Positions 43,096 to 49,335 are shown, numbered from the stretch's first letter. The stretch is DNA of 58,185 nt from a bacterium (GCA_043823125.1 JBDRBC010000479.1:1-58185); one strand, 5' to 3'. Numbers and translations: made by a program. The notes: a model not told the origin generated them from the sequence alone.

Positions 43096-44706
43096 CTAGA
43101 ACCGAACCGGCTCCTTGAAAGTGCCGAACACCTCCACCAGGCAACGAGTGATTTCGCCGACGGTAGCGTACGCCTGCACTGCCGCGATGATGGCGGGCAT
43201 GACGTTGTCTTCCGTTCGGGCGACCTCCGTCACTTTCTTCAATGCTGCAGCCACCCGGGCAGCGTCCCGCTCATTGCGTTTCCGATCGAGTCGGTCGAGC
43301 TGATGGCGGCAGTTGTTTGCCTCGAACTGGTGATACTCGATGCTGAGTTCCTCTTCCTCAATCCGGTAACAGTTCACGCCTACCTTGCGCCTCTCGCCGT
43401 TCTGGACAGCCACGAGATCTGCCTTGGCCTGACGGGAAACCGCGGCCTGTATCTGGCCCTCGGCGATGGCCTTGACGATGCCGCCCTGGCTGTCGACCTC
43501 CACCATCACCGCGCGGATCTTCTGCTCCATCTGATTCGTCAGCGTCTCCACGTAATAGGAGCCACCCAGCGGATCCACCGTATCACAGAGTCCCATCTCC
43601 TCGATGAGGATCTGCATGGTGCGCAAGGAGATCCGCGCCGCTTTTTCGGTGGGAATCGTGAACGCCTCGTCGTAGGAGCACAACGCCATGGTCTGGGTGC
43701 CGGACAGGGCGCTGATCAGGGCATAATAGGCGCTACGCACGATGTTGTTCTCCGGTTGCTCGATGGTCAAGCCCCCACCCCCGCCACCAGCTATCATGCG
43801 CATCCACATGGACTTGGAGTTCTGCGCTGCATATTCCTCTTTAATGATCCGCGCCCAGAGCCGACGGCCCGCCCGGAACTTGGCCACCTGCTCGAACAGG
43901 TTGCCATGAATGTCGAAGTTGAACGACAACCGCGAGGCAAAGCTGTCGATGTCCAGCCCCCGCTCGAGCACCAGATCGATGTAGGCCTTGGCGATGCAGA
44001 AGGCGTAGGCCATCTCCTGTACCGGGTTCGCACCGGACTCCCGGATGTGGTATCCGCAGACGCTGACCGGGCTGTAGAGCGGAGCATTCTCGGCGCAGTA
44101 GGCGATGGTGTCCCCCACCAACCGCATCGACGGCTCCACCGGAAAGATCCAGGTTCCCCGACCGACGAACTCCTTCAAGATGTCGTTCTGGGCCGTGCCT
44201 CTCAGTCTGCTCAGGTCGTAACCCCGCTTTTCCGCCAGGGCGAGATACATGGCGATCAGGACGGCAGCGGCGCCGTTGATCGTCAGTGATACGGTGATCT
44301 TCTCCAGATCGATCCCGGCGAAGGCGATCTCTAAATCCTCCAGCGTATCCACCGCCATGCCCACCCGACCCACTTCACCGGCGGCGAGTTCGGCATCGGA
44401 ATCCAGACCCACCTGGGTCGGCAGATCGAAAGCCACATTCAGACCGGTCTGTCCATTCTCGATCAGATAGTGGAATCGCCCGTTCGTTTCCTCGGGCGTA
44501 CCGAAACCCGCGTACTGCCGCATGGTGTAGGGACGCTGGCGGTACATGTACTGGTGGATCCCGCGGGTGAAGGGAAAGACACCCGGGTTACCCACCGGGT
44601 CTTCACCACCGCTGGCGGCCAGATCGTCGGCCGTGTAGACCGGTTTGATCTCGATGCCCGATTCATTGAATACCGGCGGCAGATCCATTTTCTGAGGACT
44701 ACTCAT
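43096..44706 (-). CDS. B12-dependent acyl-CoA mutase, large (substrate-binding) subunit
   Basis: 536 aa. GVFPFTRGIHQYMYRQRPYTMRQYAGFGTPEETNGRFHYL...GLNVAFDLPTQ is the methylmalonyl-CoA-mutase-family TIM-barrel signature. Confidence 0.9.
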   Translation of the reverse strand: MSSPQKMDLPPVFNESGIEIKPVYTADDLAASGGEDPVGNPGVFPFTRGIHQYMYRQRPYTMRQYAGFGTPEETNGRFHYLIENGQTGLNVAFDLPTQVGLDSDAELAAGEVGRVGMAVDTLEDLEIAFAGIDLEKITVSLTINGAAAVLIAMYLALAEKRGYDLSRLRGTAQNDILKEFVGRGTWIFPVEPSMRLVGDTIAYCAENAPLYSPVSVCGYHIRESGANPVQEMAYAFCIAKAYIDLVLERGLDIDSFASRLSFNFDIHGNLFEQVAKFRAGRRLWARIIKEEYAAQNSKSMWMRMIAGGGGGGLTIEQPENNIVRSAYYALISALSGTQTMALCSYDEAFTIPTEKAARISLRTMQILIEEMGLCDTVDPLGGSYYVETLTNQMEQKIRAVMVEVDSQGGIVKAIAEGQIQAAVSRQAKADLVAVQNGERRKVGVNCYRIEEEELSIEYHQFEANNCRHQLDRLDRKRNERDAARVAAALKKVTEVARTEDNVMPAIIAAVQAYATVGEITRCLVEVFGTFKEPVRF

Positions 44707-45098
44707 GTCACTCTCTCGTTGATGAAATCCACGATTGACTGCAGCGGGGTACCGAAAGGAAACACCCCGTGCACCCCGAGTTCTGTCAGCTCAGCCAGGT
44801 CGGCCCGGGGAATGCTGCCGCCGACGATCCACAACTTGTCAGCGAGGCCATAGTCGGGCAGCAACTCCTTGAGTTTACGGCACAACGGCAGGTGGGACCC
44901 GGAAAGGATGGACAGTCCGATCACGTCGACATCCTCGTCACGGGCGGCGGCCGCGATCTCGGCGGCGGATTTGCGCAGTCCCGTGTAGATGACGTCGAAG
45001 CCCGCCTCCAGCAACGTACGTACCACGATCTTGGCGCCCACGTCGTGGCCGTCCAGGCCCGGTTTGGCCACCAGGATCTTGATCTTCCGCTGATTCAT
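44703..45098 (-). CDS. acyl-CoA mutase small subunit, cobalamin-binding domain
   Basis: 131 aa. KILVAKPGLDGHDVGAKIVVRTLLEAGFDVIYTG contains the DxHxxG base-off B12 motif. ATGA overlap with the large subunit. Confidence 0.9.
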   Translation of the reverse strand: MNQRKIKILVAKPGLDGHDVGAKIVVRTLLEAGFDVIYTGLRKSAAEIAAAARDEDVDVIGLSILSGSHLPLCRKLKELLPDYGLADKLWIVGGSIPRADLAELTELGVHGVFPFGTPLQSIVDFINERVT

Positions 45099-46297
45099 CA
45101 GTCGGCTTCTTTCCCTAGAATGGTCACGGCGGCGATGGCCCCGGGGCCGCCGATGTTGTGCGCGAGTCCCAGGCGGGCGCCGGAGATCTGACGGTCGCCG
45201 GCACTCCCGCGCAGATGTTCACAGATCTCGTGGACCATACGGATTCCGGTGGCCCCCACGGGATGACCGCACGACAGCAGGCCGCCGCTCACGTTGACGG
45301 GGATGTCGCCGTCTCGTCGCGTGGCGCCGGACCGCACCAGTTCCTTGGCTTCGCCCTGCTGGCAAAAACCGAGATCCTCGTAGGTCAACAGCTCGACGAT
45401 GGAAAAACAGTCGTGCACTTCCGCCAGATCGATCTGAGCGGCGGGATCGTCGATACCGGCCTGCCGGTACGCCTTCTTCGCGGCGACCCTAGCCGCCTGG
45501 AACGAGAGCAGATCGTAGGACTCATCGAAGAACGGCAGGTCCCAGCCCGTCGAAACGGACAGTCCCAGACCCTTGAGATAGACCGGGGTTCCGGCGTACT
45601 TCCCGGCATCCTCGGCGCGGACCAGGATCACCGCCGCGGCGCCGTCGGTGGTGGGACAGGAATCCATCACCGTCAACGGATCCGCCACCAGCGGCGAGTG
45701 GAGCGCCTGCTCGAGCGTGATCTCCCGCCGGTAATGGGCGCGTGGGTTGAGACAGGCGTGGGCGTGATTCTTCACCGAGATGGCTGCCAGATCCTCCCGG
45801 GTCACGCCGTACTTCTCGAAGTGCCGGCTCGCGTACATGGCGAAGGTGCCGGCGGCGGTGAATCCCTTCTGATAAAACGGGTGCCCCATCTCCACCATCA
45901 GCTTGACGATGCTGTCCTGCGGCGAACGGTCGCGCAGCTTTTCCACGCCCAGGGCTAGGGCCACGTTGCTCTCGCCGGCCAGCAACGAGTTCACGGCGCC
46001 GCGCACGGCCTCGGCGGCGGTGGCGCAGTAGTTCGAGACCCGGGTGATCGGGATATGGAACAGGCCGAGCGGCTCGGCCAGATCCATGCCGGCCCGCCCC
46101 TTGTAGACCCCGGCGTCGGGAAAGGCGGTGCCCAGCCAGGCGGCGTCGATCTGTCGTCGGGAAACGCCGGCATCCGCCAAGGCGTCGTGAGCCGCCGCGG
46201 CCACGAGGTCCTCGTAGCTCAGATGAAAGTGCTCGCCGAACTCGGTGCAACCGATGCCGACGATACAGACCAGGTCCTTGAAATCGTTACCCGGCAT
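45098..46297 (-). CDS. thiolase (SCP-x / archaeal-type, pairs with a DUF35 partner)
   Basis: ATG at 46297 gives MPGNDFKDLVCIVGIGCTEFGEH. Nucleophile region VSNYCATAAEAV; C-terminal VNVSGGLLSCGHPVGATG and LAHNIGGPG. Confidence 0.85.
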   Translation of the reverse strand: MPGNDFKDLVCIVGIGCTEFGEHFHLSYEDLVAAAAHDALADAGVSRRQIDAAWLGTAFPDAGVYKGRAGMDLAEPLGLFHIPITRVSNYCATAAEAVRGAVNSLLAGESNVALALGVEKLRDRSPQDSIVKLMVEMGHPFYQKGFTAAGTFAMYASRHFEKYGVTREDLAAISVKNHAHACLNPRAHYRREITLEQALHSPLVADPLTVMDSCPTTDGAAAVILVRAEDAGKYAGTPVYLKGLGLSVSTGWDLPFFDESYDLLSFQAARVAAKKAYRQAGIDDPAAQIDLAEVHDCFSIVELLTYEDLGFCQQGEAKELVRSGATRRDGDIPVNVSGGLLSCGHPVGATGIRMVHEICEHLRGSAGDRQISGARLGLAHNIGGPGAIAAVTILGKEAD

Positions 46298-47714
46298 GGT
46301 CTTGCTCCCCGGTCGCCACGGCCCGGCATTTCCAGAAGTAGTTGGGTCGATCTCCAGCATCGTGCAGCCGCCGGAACACCAGCTCCACCCGGTCGCCCAC
46401 CTGCAAGGGGTGATCCTCGTCGGCCACCTGCAGCGTCAGCCGGCCCCCACCCTGGAGATCCACGGTGGCCATGCCCAGCGGCGGCTCCGGCGTGGGATAA
46501 TAGTGCTCGTGCGTGATGGCGAAGACCCTGCCCGTGGTTGCCAGCGGATAATCGGCGAGTTCGGTGGGCTCCGCACAGTGTGGACAGTTCGGCAACGGCA
46601 GGGTGATCACGGCGTCGCAAGTGCCGCAGCGCCTGGCGATCAGTGAAAACCAGAGCGACCGGTTACGCTCCTCCATGATCTCGGAGGTGAAGCCGCCACT
46701 GTCCCGGGCACTGCCCGCGTGCAGATCGTGCAGAGCCAGGAACCGATTGTACGAGATGTCGTATCCCTGGGCCAGAGCCGTCTCGAAGTGCGAGAGTTCG
46801 GGGCGCCGCTCCATCTGCAGAGCGCAGGCGGAAGCGCCATCGCCATACCCGAGGGCGAGAAGACGTTCACCGGGACTCGCTTGCTCCAGCGCCGCGTTTA
46901 GCATCACCAGCAGATGAGCAGTGCCGGTCAGTCCCAGGTGCGGGCTGGCCAGGTCGCGGTACTGACGCTTCAGATCAAAACCGTTGCGTTGCAAAAGACG
47001 ACTCGCGCTCTTGATGTCCGGACTGTACGGGACCACCACGTCGATGTCAGCCGCTGGCCAGCCCGTCTGTTCCAGGATCCCGGTGAGCACGGCCTGGGTA
47101 GGACGGGCATACGCCCCTTGCCGCGCAAAGCGCTGGTCACCGGAACGGGGGAACCTGGCGCCGGCCGTGCGCCAGGTGTCGAGCTGGGAACTGGTGTGGC
47201 GGGTGTGAGCCAGGATCCGGGCGATGGCGCCGTCGGCCGGCCCGATGATCAACGCTACCCCGGCATGGCCGAACAGGAATTCATCGGGGCTGCCCGGTCT
47301 GGCGAGACGCTGATCGGCCGCGATCACCAGAACGTTCCGGCAGGAACCGGCAGCAACCAATTCACAGGCGGTTTCCAGAGCGGTGCAGCCCGCGCGCAGG
47401 CTGCCGCCCAGGTCGAGACAGCGAGCCTCTCCAGGCAGGCCGAGGGCGGCGGCAAGAACCGCCGCGTCCGATCGTTCGGCGAAGACTCCCGTGGTGCTTG
47501 CGAAGATCAAGCCATCGAGCGTGGATCGGTCGTGGCCGGCGGTTGCCTGGAGCGCGGCCTGCAAGCCCAGGGTCAGGGAATCCTCGTCGTGGCCGGTGAC
47601 AGCACGTGCCCCGGGCATACCCGGCCGCTGCCACGCCTCCTGCACGGTCCGGTTCGTCAGTCGTCTGCGGGGAATCGCGAATCCCCAGCCCTGGATTCCA
47701 CTGCCGGCACTCAC
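46287..47714 (-). CDS. fusion protein: HMG-CoA-synthase/KAS III-like domain (catalytic residues apparently substituted) + C-terminal DUF35 zinc-ribbon/OB-fold
   Basis: GTG start at 47714 (GTGA overlap). The N-terminal ~330 aa align by eye to archaeal HMG-CoA synthase (IQGWGFAIPRRRL, HDEDSLTLGL, VIAADQRLARPG...GHAGVALIIG, LALGYGDGAS). The C-terminal part, CGTCDAVITLPLPNCPHCAEP...VGDRVELVFRRL, is a DUF35 rubredoxin-like knuckle plus OB fold. Confidence 0.75.
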   Translation of the reverse strand: MSAGSGIQGWGFAIPRRRLTNRTVQEAWQRPGMPGARAVTGHDEDSLTLGLQAALQATAGHDRSTLDGLIFASTTGVFAERSDAAVLAAALGLPGEARCLDLGGSLRAGCTALETACELVAAGSCRNVLVIAADQRLARPGSPDEFLFGHAGVALIIGPADGAIARILAHTRHTSSQLDTWRTAGARFPRSGDQRFARQGAYARPTQAVLTGILEQTGWPAADIDVVVPYSPDIKSASRLLQRNGFDLKRQYRDLASPHLGLTGTAHLLVMLNAALEQASPGERLLALGYGDGASACALQMERRPELSHFETALAQGYDISYNRFLALHDLHAGSARDSGGFTSEIMEERNRSLWFSLIARRCGTCDAVITLPLPNCPHCAEPTELADYPLATTGRVFAITHEHYYPTPEPPLGMATVDLQGGGRLTLQVADEDHPLQVGDRVELVFRRLHDAGDRPNYFWKCRAVATGEQDHAG

Positions 47715-48841
47715 CTGGTCATCTCCTTGGCGATTATCAGTTTCAGTATCTCGCTGGTGCCGCCGCCATACAGGGTGAAGCGGATGTCCCGGAAATACCG
47801 TTGCACCGGATACTCCATGGCATACCCGTAAGAAGCAAAGATCCGGGTGGCCTGATCACAGAGGCCGACAGCTGCCTCGGTGGCGAACAGCTTGGCCATG
47901 GCGGCCTCCTGGACATGGGCCTGGCCCGTGTCGAGAAGCCAGGCCGCCCGGTACACGAGCTGGGTTGCCGCCGCGAGATCAGTACCCATCTCGGCCAGTT
48001 TGAACTGAATGGCCTGGAATCGATTGATCGGGCGGCCGAATTGCTGTCGCTGGGCGGCGTACGCCACCGAATCGTCGAGTGCGGCCCGGGCGACTCCGAG
48101 GGCCAGCGCTCCGGTCATGATCCGGATCTGGGCCAGGAGCTTGCGCAACTCGACTTCGCCCTGCCCCTCGGCGCCCAGTCGGTGGTGTACGGGCACGCTA
48201 CAGTCATCGAGTGAGAGCTCGGAGGTGGGCAAGGCCCAGACACCCATCTTCTCGATCTCCCTGCCGATCCGCAGCCCGGGCGTCTCGCTTCCGACCAGAA
48301 AGATGGTCAGCTGCTCTTCCTCGCCCACGCGGGCAAAGACCGTGAAAAAGTCGGCAACCGGCGCGGCGGTGATCCACATCTTCTGCCCATTGAGCAGATA
48401 GCCATCCTGGTGACGAACCGCCGTGGTGGAGATGGCGGACAGATCACTCCCGGCATCGGGTTCGGTGATGCAGATGGCGCCGATCTTTTCTCCGCGCAGA
48501 GCCGGTTCGAACCAGCGCGCCTGCAGGTCCAGGTCGCCCAAGGTGAACAGGAAATGGGTTCCCATGAGTGATTGCATGGCCGCGGCGGCGGCCAGCGAGA
48601 GCGAACCCCGGGCGATCTGCTCGATGGCCAGACAGTAGGAGACGAAGTCCAGACCCGAACCGCCCACCGACTCCGGATAACGCAGCCCGAAGAAGCCCAG
48701 GTCGCCGAGCTGGGTCATGAGCTGGCGGGGATACGACTTCGCCTCGTCTATCTCGGCGGCCACCGGCTTGATCCTCTCGTCGCAGAAACGTACGAAGGTA
48801 TCTCGCACGAGTCGCTGTGGCTCGTTCAGGGCAAAATCCAC
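47711..48841 (-). CDS. acyl-CoA dehydrogenase
   Basis: I prefer the GTG at 48841 (VDFALNEPQRLVRD, preceded by GGGAGGAG) over the track ATG at 48874. Contains CITEPDAGSDLSAI and YPVQRYFRDIRFTLYGGGTSEI. Confidence 0.9.
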   Translation of the reverse strand: MDFALNEPQRLVRDTFVRFCDERIKPVAAEIDEAKSYPRQLMTQLGDLGFFGLRYPESVGGSGLDFVSYCLAIEQIARGSLSLAAAAAMQSLMGTHFLFTLGDLDLQARWFEPALRGEKIGAICITEPDAGSDLSAISTTAVRHQDGYLLNGQKMWITAAPVADFFTVFARVGEEEQLTIFLVGSETPGLRIGREIEKMGVWALPTSELSLDDCSVPVHHRLGAEGQGEVELRKLLAQIRIMTGALALGVARAALDDSVAYAAQRQQFGRPINRFQAIQFKLAEMGTDLAAATQLVYRAAWLLDTGQAHVQEAAMAKLFATEAAVGLCDQATRIFASYGYAMEYPVQRYFRDIRFTLYGGGTSEILKLIIAKEMTR

Positions 48842-49335
48842 TACTCCCGCTCCTCCCAGAATTGCCGCAGGCAACCGCCCCCGCCGCCGGGTAGAGATTC
48901 GACGGTCGAGACCCGCAAGGAAGTTCCCAGCGCCGAATTGATCGCCTTCACGACGACCTGCAGAAAATGATCACACCCCGCGAGGTCCTCGGCCAGCAGG
49001 TTCTCACGCTGGTGCCAATCGAACCAAGGGCAGCTGTGGTGCCGCACCTGGCAGCGGCCATCGGCCGAATTCTCGATCACTTCCGCTTCCTCGCCCATGA
49101 CCACGCTGCTGGACACGAACAGCGCGGCCACCTGTTCGGCGACATCCCCGTCGGCATCGATCTGGCGTAGATAGTAACTCGCCGTGTCCCGGCCGACCTC
49201 GTCCCAGTACCGGTTGACGAGTTCCCCGGGATCGAGTCCGGGATTCAGGGCCAGAGCGGCGCGGCGCCACTGGAAATGGGACGCGCGCATGATGGTGGCC
49301 AGCACCTCGAATCTTCTCTCTGCTTCCATGGTCAT
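48841..49335 (-). CDS. small conserved-looking protein of unknown function (Cys/His/Trp motif CPWFDWH...GCDHF)
   Basis: 164 aa, with an ATGA overlap to the upstream hyuB-like stop and its stop overlapping the ACAD start. From memory only, it faintly resembles the ATC-hydrolase-type family found near hydantoinases. Confidence 0.5.
   Translation of the reverse strand: MTMEAERRFEVLATIMRASHFQWRRAALALNPGLDPGELVNRYWDEVGRDTASYYLRQIDADGDVAEQVAALFVSSSVVMGEEAEVIENSADGRCQVRHHSCPWFDWHQRENLLAEDLAGCDHFLQVVVKAINSALGTSLRVSTVESLPGGGGGCLRQFWEERE

Follow-up and report, generated by a model that had tools for sequence, protein, structure and literature searches.

A fused pseudo-HMG-CoA synthase–DUF35 protein as the probable non-catalytic partner of a thiolase in an iaa-type operon

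In the 3-hydroxy-3-methylglutaryl-coenzyme A (HMG-CoA) synthase (HMGCS or HMGS) of Methanothermococcus thermolithotrophicus, an E82/C114/H238/N270 tetrad was proven essential by experiment (PMC12960953). The same 2026 Nature Communications paper, 'Evolutionary repurposing of a metabolic thiolase complex enables antibiotic biosynthesis', surveyed 1,030 loci of bacteria at which HMGS, ACAT (thiolase) and DUF35 are encoded together. The P. fluorescens complex described there consists of a fused HMGS-DUF35 protein lacking the E-C-H-N tetrad and an ACAT that keeps Cys, HDxF and GHx; it made neither HMG-CoA nor acetoacetyl-CoA, it cleaved acetoacetyl-CoA, and an H294Y replacement abolished the cleavage (PMC12960953). 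The complex was called an 'evolutionary intermediate' and was given no assigned pathway (PMC12960953). Here we analysed a gene of this fused type on a bacterial DNA stretch of 58,185 nucleotides (GCA_043823125.1 JBDRBC010000479.1:1-58185), which as a whole is called the window. Its 475-amino-acid product is probably a non-catalytic partner subunit of the thiolase encoded directly downstream, in an operon of the iaa type. The gene pair most likely supplies the terminal thiolase step, in which an aryl-3-oxopropionyl-CoA is cleaved to aroyl-CoA and acetyl-CoA. A first-pass annotation of this DNA had already suggested a non-catalytic pseudo-HMGCS::DUF35 partner of an aryl-3-oxoacyl-CoA thiolase, an idea now supported by the loss of the tetrad, the intact thiolase next door and the iaa-like context and, by analogy, by a homologous complex capable of thiolysis only (PMC12960953).

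Architecture and active site of the fused protein

The fused gene and its parts are as follows.

46287..47714, minus strand: fused gene, pseudo-HMG-CoA synthase::DUF35, 475 amino acids, GTG start, TAA stop
46800..47714, minus strand: pseudo-HMGCS domain with thiolase fold, about residues 1-305 (alignments, column counts, Foldseek)
46644..46799, minus strand: inter-domain linker, residues 306-357, in frame and free of stop codons and frameshifts
46572..46643, minus strand: rubredoxin-like zinc ribbon (zf-ChsH2), residues 358-381, ligands C363, C366, C377 and C380
46320..46559, minus strand: DUF35 oligonucleotide/oligosaccharide-binding (OB) fold (OB_ChsH2_C), about residues 386-465 (Pfam, PDB matches, AlphaFold2 model)
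47493-47495, 47397-47399, 47025-47027 and 46929-46931, minus strand: codons of the replaced tetrad, Thr74, Leu106, Tyr230 and Leu262, respectively

When the active site was aligned with the M. thermolithotrophicus HMGCS (6esq_I) by HMMER, GSESHPY corresponded to ASTTGVF, FACKAG to GSLRAG and FHQPNG to PYSPDI, so that Glu was replaced by Thr74, Cys by Leu106 and His by Tyr230. The motifs of the fusion lie at residues 71-78, 101-112 and 227-235. A second alignment, with the genuine HMGCS of the same genome (BLASTP, 29% identity, E 4e-31), repeated all three replacements and added a fourth, GNT to GLT, by which Asn became Leu262. The Glu-Cys-His-Asn tetrad of catalytic archaeal-type HMGCS is thus absent from the fusion. 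Both alignments and the column counts below agree with the first-pass annotation, which had read the N-terminus as HMGCS-like with substituted Cys, Glu and His; the comparison by hidden Markov models that it had proposed upheld the replacements, and no intact Cys/His/Glu triad was found.

The replacements extend through the family. None of 44 aligned database homologues had Glu, Cys or His at the three positions. A one-genome-per-species scan gave at least 551 confirmed relatives of the fusion, from which 80 loci were kept; the column and neighbourhood counts that follow refer to these. Glu was replaced by Thr in 80/80 loci, Cys was absent from every one of them (Leu in 60, Thr in 13 and Val in 5), and so was His, with Tyr in 55. 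At the fourth position Asn was still present in 56/80 loci, and all four zinc cysteines were kept throughout. Cys110 (RAGCTA) was considered as an alternative nearby nucleophile and was ruled out, as this column held Cys in only 2/44 homologues. Judged from these alignments, the HMGCS-like domain is predicted to be catalytically dead, and with the tetrad lost a Claisen condensation by the N-terminal domain would be impossible. A genuine HMGCS was ruled out as the identity of the fusion by the lost tetrad together with family scores under the cut-offs, which are given below.

The same genome carries a canonical, unfused archaeal-type trio on another contig (C334; L083:6062-8670, minus strand). 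Its HMGCS of 349 amino acids has GSESHPY, FACKAG, FHMPNG and GNTYSG intact, and it is accompanied by a thiolase of 384 amino acids and a DUF35 protein of 131 amino acids with the CxxC...CxxC pattern. The genome holds both a genuine complex and a dead fused paralogue, and the unfused trio probably serves the mevalonate pathway.

Pfam matches to the fusion comprised ACP_syn_III and ACP_syn_III_C (residues 108-299), which are the two FabH/HMGS-type halves, zf-ChsH2 (358-381) and OB_ChsH2_C (390-448). The best NCBIfam model was that of archaeal HMGCS, NF003274, which aligned with residues 5-305 (E 8.8e-51). The fusion missed the cut-offs of both archaeal-HMGCS families, scoring 172.9 bits against the curated 244 bits for NF003274 and 119.7 against 353 bits for TIGR00748. 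In a HMMER search of the PDB, the N-terminal part matched 6esq_I with an E-value of 2.5e-27 and also matched PhlA proteins (9skh, 5m3k); the C-terminal part matched the DUF35 protein 6esq_E (E 9.3e-9) and the ChsH2 DUF35 protein 6ok1_B (E 1.9e-5). The complete C-terminal DUF35 module seen in the first-pass annotation, a zinc knuckle plus an OB fold, was therefore confirmed by the Pfam and PDB matches. An AlphaFold2 model of the fusion, calculated as a single chain on 44 homologues, had a mean predicted local distance difference test score (pLDDT) of 90.7 and a predicted template modelling score of 0.92, and it showed a fold of the HMGCS/thiolase superfamily. The top match in Foldseek was archaeal HMGCS (6et9_I/6esq_J), with a template modelling (TM) score by target of 0.89-0.90 and a root-mean-square deviation of 1.8 Å over about 346 columns; PhlA and MucA (9vbo) ranked after it. 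The model thus predicts that the N-terminal domain retains the HMG-CoA synthase fold, and the dimer interface of HMGCS is presumably kept.

The two domains were joined in the AlphaFold2 model without a break by a structured linker, with helices predicted at residues 309-315, 322-328 and 345-357 and a pLDDT mostly of 82-94, with one block at 69. A fused gene in a window taken from a fragmented, metagenome-type assembly of 663 contigs might be an assembly or frameshift artefact that joins two genes, and no positive evidence for this was found. The fused open frame was present in 80/80 loci, which come from independent assemblies and many phyla, complete plasmids from cultured strains and some 60 clusters of proteins had it as well, and the linker was modelled with confidence, which leaves an artefact with virtually no probability. 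The candidate artefact was refuted by the conserved fused frame in the 80 loci and the complete plasmids. The search of other genomes suggested in the first-pass annotation thereby settled this question, with at least 551 relatives and the fused frame at every kept locus.

The partner thiolase and the proposed reaction

Directly downstream of the fusion lies its thiolase.

45098..46297, minus strand: SCP2/archaeal-type thiolase, 399 amino acids from ATG 46297, with Cys91, His295 (HDCF) and His345 (GHP)

The end of the fusion gene (TAA) and the thiolase ATG at 46297 overlap by 11 nucleotides (ATGCCGGGTAA), and GGGGAG precedes the ATG. From this arrangement, the fusion and the thiolase are predicted to be translationally coupled via the overlap. 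The thiolase scored 443.5 bits against NCBIfam NF004810, above the cut-off of 403, and its whole length could be aligned with archaeal ACAT and SCP2-type thiolases (7yvy, 4yzo; 6esq_A, E 1.1e-64). Matches to BbsB and PhlC were far weaker (about 1e-30 for PhlC). With numbering from ATG 46297, the nucleophile motif NYC(91)AT, H(295)DCF and GH(345)P are all kept, and the SCP-x/archaeal-type thiolase with intact Cys and His and an 11-nucleotide overlap that had been noted from the sequence was found as described. In 71/80 loci the fusion was followed directly by a homologous thiolase gene, and in one further locus such a gene came immediately before it.

The fusion and the thiolase, produced in a coupled way, would assemble as a hetero-oligomer, as we infer for this organism. 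The DUF35 module, with its zinc ribbon and OB fold, would act as a clamp on the thiolase, a role that it has in the archaeal complex, in BbsAB and in ChsH2-Ltp2. The dead HMGS domain would serve as a dimeric platform and probably as one half of a shared CoA chamber, a feature described as retained in bacterial complexes (PMC12960953). In this arrangement the thiolase would gain stability from the dead HMGS-DUF35 subunit, which would also contribute to the CoA-binding chamber that both share. The thiolase, with Cys91 as the nucleophile and with His295 and His345, would then carry out the CoA-dependent thiolysis of a 3-oxoacyl-CoA; thiolysis without HMG-CoA synthesis is an activity known for the homologue only. 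Because the gene pair is placed after an orthologue of IaaF, the likely substrate is a 2-aminobenzoylacetyl-type CoA ester or benzoylacetyl-CoA. The IaaF orthologue would make (amino)cinnamoyl-CoA, and enzymes from elsewhere in the genome would hydrate and oxidise it to 3-(2-aminophenyl)-3-oxopropionyl-CoA or benzoylacetyl-CoA, the substrate that we infer for this organism. The products would be 2-aminobenzoyl-CoA (or benzoyl-CoA) and acetyl-CoA.

The solved structures most closely related to the N-terminal domain include PhlA (9skh, 5m3k) and MucA (9vbo), which likewise lack the tetrad, and the pair could on this ground be a CoA-independent Friedel-Crafts C-acyltransferase of the PhlABC/MucABC type that acts on an aromatic acceptor instead of a thiolase. 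However, HDxF is lost in PhlABC/MucABC (PMC12960953) and is present here as HDCF, and the thiolase matches archaeal ACAT (E 1e-64) much better than PhlC (E about 1e-30). The replaced tetrad also differs, as it reads T/L/Y/L here, whereas PhlA has Cys, Gly and Gln at the first three positions in the PDB alignment. A mut4 variant, in which the archaeal tetrad was replaced, carries C/G/Q/D (PMC12960953). In addition, the neighbours are genes of CoA-ester catabolism, without any polyketide synthase (PKS) or nonribosomal peptide synthetase (NRPS) gene. We therefore consider a C-acyltransferase very unlikely, and an identity of the PhlABC type was rejected on the retained HDxF.

Operon context and spread of the fusion

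The fusion is the seventh of 14 genes in a tightly packed operon on the minus strand. By Pfam, the operon begins with IorA, IorB, hydantoinase A, hydantoinase B and an open reading frame (ORF) of 164 amino acids, continues with an acyl-CoA dehydrogenase (ACAD), the fusion, the thiolase and the small and large subunits of a B12-dependent mutase, and ends with a molybdenum (Mo) hydroxylase in three subunits (FAD, 2Fe-2S and Mo cofactor) and a family III CoA-transferase. The neighbours discussed here are:

47711..48841, minus strand: IaaF-type (benzylmalonyl-CoA) acyl-CoA dehydrogenase, GGG replacing YEG, its stop overlapping the GTG of the fusion
43096..45098, minus strand: split B12-dependent acyl-CoA mutase immediately after the thiolase gene, with its small subunit at 44703-45098 and its large subunit at 43096-44706
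48841-49335, minus strand: ORF of 164 amino acids between hydantoinase B and the dehydrogenase, its only Pfam match a weak one to ATC_hydrolase

The GTG of the fusion overlaps the stop of the dehydrogenase (GTGA), with AAGGAG 8 nucleotides upstream. The dehydrogenase reads LYGGGTSEI, with GGG instead of YEG, which is the signature of the IaaF (benzylmalonyl-CoA dehydrogenase) subclass (PMC8360864), and it belongs to this subclass by the motif. Proteins of Azoarcus sp. CIB and Aromatoleum share 68% identity with it, and the name 'benzylmalonyl-CoA dehydrogenase' stands in UniRef/NCBI on the CIB row (UniRef) and on two Aromatoleum sp. rows (67-68%). The rest of the iaa-type gene set, namely the split B12 mutase, the family III CoA-transferase, the Mo hydroxylase and hydantoinase A/B, is present by Pfam, with substrates that are predicted only. 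In the literature searched, we found no gene-level description of an iaa operon that gives gene functions.

The gene order of the window recurred in L001 and L002, whose fusions are 70% and 51% identical to that of the window, the gene set was found rearranged in L004 (fusion 41%), and part of it was found in L005. The mutase followed the thiolase directly in L001, L002, L004 and L005, as in the window. In L003, L004 and L005, a MaoC hydratase and a short-chain dehydrogenase/reductase (SDR) were encoded between the IaaF-like gene and the fusion (L004:8749-9950; L005:7764-8974), which gives these loci a full dehydrogenase-hydratase-dehydrogenase-thiolase series. An SDR gene was directly upstream of the fusion in 27/80 loci. 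On a Variovorax plasmid the order was SDR-MaoC-fusion-thiolase-ACAD-CoA transferase, and on a Novosphingobium ES2-1 plasmid it was ACAD-SDR-fusion-thiolase followed by two ECH genes. Together the neighbourhoods argue that the family regularly serves as a thiolase module in operons for catabolic beta-oxidation and that one of its subclades is dedicated to iaa-type operons. About 120 IaaF homologues at 67% identity or more were present among the matches listed, so the variant pathway seems to be common in metagenomes. Matching lengths of the longest contigs given for IaaF homologues and for fusion homologues suggest that an IaaF-like gene is accompanied by a close homologue of the fusion on at least twelve metagenome contigs.

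Some observations weigh against reading the fusion as a purely structural partner in this pathway. The residues that now stand at and around the former active site show strong conservation (Thr74 in 80/80 loci and 41/44 homologues; Ser105 and Arg107 each in 40/44; Asp233 in 36/44), and such conserved replacements could mean that the pocket has retained a function. By Pfam, the genes of the window operon include neither a hydratase nor a 3-hydroxyacyl-CoA dehydrogenase, and L001 and L002 lack the MaoC/SDR pair as well; formation of the proposed substrate would hence need enzymes from outside the operon. A homologue of the L004 MaoC hydratase, or any match to Pfam PF01575, was sought in the window's own genome and none was found, in an assembly that is 87% complete, so that absence is not shown. 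The genome has at least ten crotonase-family genes (ECH_1), none of them linked to the operon, and one crotonase-family frame of 670 amino acids may be a fused hydratase/dehydrogenase.

The pocket of the pseudo-HMGS domain might accordingly have been repurposed, with Thr74, Ser105, Arg107, Tyr230 and Asp233 forming a new catalytic or ligand site. Such a site would either hydrate or otherwise process an enoyl- or hydroxyacyl-CoA where MaoC and SDR are missing, or bind the aryl group and pass the 3-oxoacyl-CoA on to the thiolase. The conservation of the replacement residues, the operons of the window, L001 and L002 without the MaoC/SDR pair of L003-L005, and the lack of a MaoC-family match in the 87%-complete genome all speak for it. 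However, the same replacements occurred in loci with MaoC and SDR and so did not track the missing enzymes, the P. fluorescens complex is only thiolytic and acts via the HDxF histidine of its thiolase (PMC12960953), and the ten or more crotonase-family genes could act in trans; we thus find a repurposed pocket quite unlikely. A wider version holds that the remodelled pocket is functional, either as an aryl/CoA chamber that channels the 3-oxoacyl-CoA to the thiolase, with the archaeal complex running in reverse, or as a new site that covers the missing hydratase and dehydrogenase steps, and that the iaa subclade is a dedicated 2-aminobenzoylacetyl-CoA thiolase. This version is also unlikely; if true, the pair would be a dedicated thiolase in a so far undescribed variant of anaerobic tryptophan/auxin degradation initiated by indolepyruvate:ferredoxin oxidoreductase (IOR).

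The direction of the reaction was weighed in the same context. Thiolases are reversible, archaeal DUF35/thiolase complexes support condensation (bioRxiv 10.1101/2024.07.05.601840), and relatives of the fusion carry MaoC (R-specific) and SDR, which are partners typical of synthesis. The complex could therefore run in the condensing direction and build a 3-oxoacyl-CoA, like the archaeal complex or the thiolase/DUF35 fatty-acid synthase of Sulfolobus. In contrast, with a dead HMGS no downstream enzyme would pull the reaction, the P. fluorescens complex formed no acetoacetyl-CoA from acetyl-CoA (PMC12960953), and the gene follows directly after IaaF, whose reaction is irreversible and degradative (PMC8360864), in a catabolic operon. 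A condensing role is thus highly improbable, and we favour thiolysis by a pair whose fused subunit is non-catalytic.

The fusion is widespread. Its relatives belong to Myxococcota, Binatia, Thermodesulfobacteriota, Chloroflexota, Planctomycetota, Bacillota and other phyla, and a protein search gave about 60 clusters of fused proteins with 460-510 amino acids. The gene was carried on 31 plasmid records of cultured bacteria (degraders), with hosts that include Sphingobium, Rhodococcus (DK17, R. opacus PD630), Novosphingobium, Variovorax and Mycobacterium avium. On these plasmids it is annotated as 'OB-fold domain-containing protein', the name used by RefSeq, or as '3-oxoacyl-ACP synthase III C-terminal domain protein'. 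Many clusters of the same architecture were also found in the ESM Atlas. The first-pass annotation had not recognised the architecture, and its novelty was not borne out: in addition to the relatives, plasmid records and clusters just listed, the fusion was described and assayed in 2026 as PfACAT/HMGS-DUF35 (PMC12960953), and the dead PhlA and MucA were known earlier. The architecture is real, widespread and already described.

A maximum-likelihood tree of the fusions was calculated with 45 of 97 rows; L054 and L075 were omitted for their over-long frames, and about three quarters of L006-L080 were thinned out. The fusions with an iaa context fell on one side of a branch with 100/98 support, and a second group, tied to another ACAD and mutase pair, formed its own clade with 97/90 support. 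By its position in this tree, the fusion of the window is assigned to a well-supported subclade within iaa-type operons.

Several further observations were made at these loci. The fusions of L030, L054, L058, L060 and L078 (at about 10001; 4856 in L054) were 33-35% identical to that of the window and adjoined an acyl-CoA dehydrogenase (37-40%) and a split B12 mutase (43-51%); those of L030, L058, L060 and L078 made up a clade of their own in the tree. This set may belong to a different aryl- or alkyl-succinate/malonyl-CoA pathway with the same logic. On plasmid p3 of Novosphingobium sp. ES2-1 (L093, 140558-148694), one catabolic cluster had both a fusion/thiolase pair and a separate pair of lipid-transfer protein (Ltp) and stand-alone DUF35, and it adjoined genes for a P450, a FadD3-type ligase and a protein of the indolepyruvate-ferredoxin-oxidoreductase family; here two different DUF35-dependent modules for C-C cleavage stand side by side. 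An ESM Atlas cluster of 791 amino acids from Thermodesulfobacteriota was a triple fusion of SDR, HMGS-like and DUF35 parts, with a TM score of 0.94 across the whole query, which is consistent with a dehydrogenase-thiolase unit. The 164-amino-acid ORF was conserved in L001, L002 and L004 (71, 64 and 50% identity), directly after hydantoinase B in the first two and elsewhere within the locus in L004; it may belong to the hydantoinase-like enzyme as a small third subunit.

No new kind of system was revealed by this analysis. What it adds is that the fusion family sits in beta-oxidation modules (SDR, fusion, thiolase), and that the window copy lies in the iaa-type subclade directly after the IaaF orthologue, which gives it a plausible pathway assignment. 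The gene pair is thus a candidate for the thiolysis that would end beta-oxidation in a variant of the anaerobic indoleacetate/tryptophan pathway of uncultured anaerobes. The routine presence of the module beside SDR, MaoC and acyl-CoA dehydrogenase genes, for bulky substrates, is a testable refinement of the view that it is an 'evolutionary intermediate'. With a current annotation of only 'OB-fold domain-containing protein', the findings also provide a useful annotation rule.

Comparison with known systems

Like the iaa operon of Aromatoleum aromaticum/A. evansii, the window operon has a GGG-type IaaF orthologue (68%), a split B12 mutase, a family III CoA-transferase, a three-subunit Mo hydroxylase and hydantoinase A/B. 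Unlike that operon, it begins with indolepyruvate:ferredoxin oxidoreductase. No Aromatoleum protein was listed in the homologue search with the fusion, in which scoring was limited to the 8,000 candidates with the most words in common, and the thiolase of the Aromatoleum iaa operon is thus probably of another type. Ebenau-Jehle is said to have described in 2012 an Aromatoleum iaa cluster with a conventional beta-ketothiolase and a hydratase/dehydrogenase fusion protein.

In BbsAB (7PXP) and ChsH2(DUF35)-Ltp2, as proposed for the window pair, DUF35 is the obligatory partner of an enzyme with the SCP2-type thiolase fold that takes part in beta-oxidation of CoA esters with bulky aromatic or steroid groups. 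Ltp2 is an aldolase and lacks the nucleophilic Cys. Both systems differ from the window pair in having no HMGS-like domain, and the BbsAB family scores were far from the cut-offs (184.4 vs 750 bits for the thiolase against BbsB; 12.8 vs 250 bits, E 0.088, for the DUF35 part against BbsA).

PhlABC and MucABC (5M3K, 5MG5, 9SKH, 9VBO) share with the window pair a tetrad-less HMGS-like subunit, an SCP2-type thiolase-like subunit and DUF35. In contrast to the window pair, they consist of three separate polypeptides, their thiolase subunit lacks HDxF, and they perform CoA-independent C-acetyl transfer in biosynthetic clusters.

The archaeal complex (6ESQ/6ET9) has three modules homologous to those of the window (HMGCS E 2.5e-27, DUF35 E 9.3e-9, thiolase E 1.1e-64). 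Compared to it, the HMGS here is predicted to be dead and carries DUF35 as a covalent fusion, in a catabolic context instead of mevalonate synthesis.

PfACAT/HMGS-DUF35 also combines a fused, tetrad-less HMGS-DUF35 with a neighbouring thiolase in which Cys, HDxF (His294, against His295 in the window) and GHx are intact, and PKS or NRPS genes are absent from both neighbourhoods. Compared by described features, the window pair has every sequence trait of this type. Unlike PfACAT/HMGS-DUF35, the window copy sits in a defined catabolic operon of the iaa type and in a well-supported subclade of its own.

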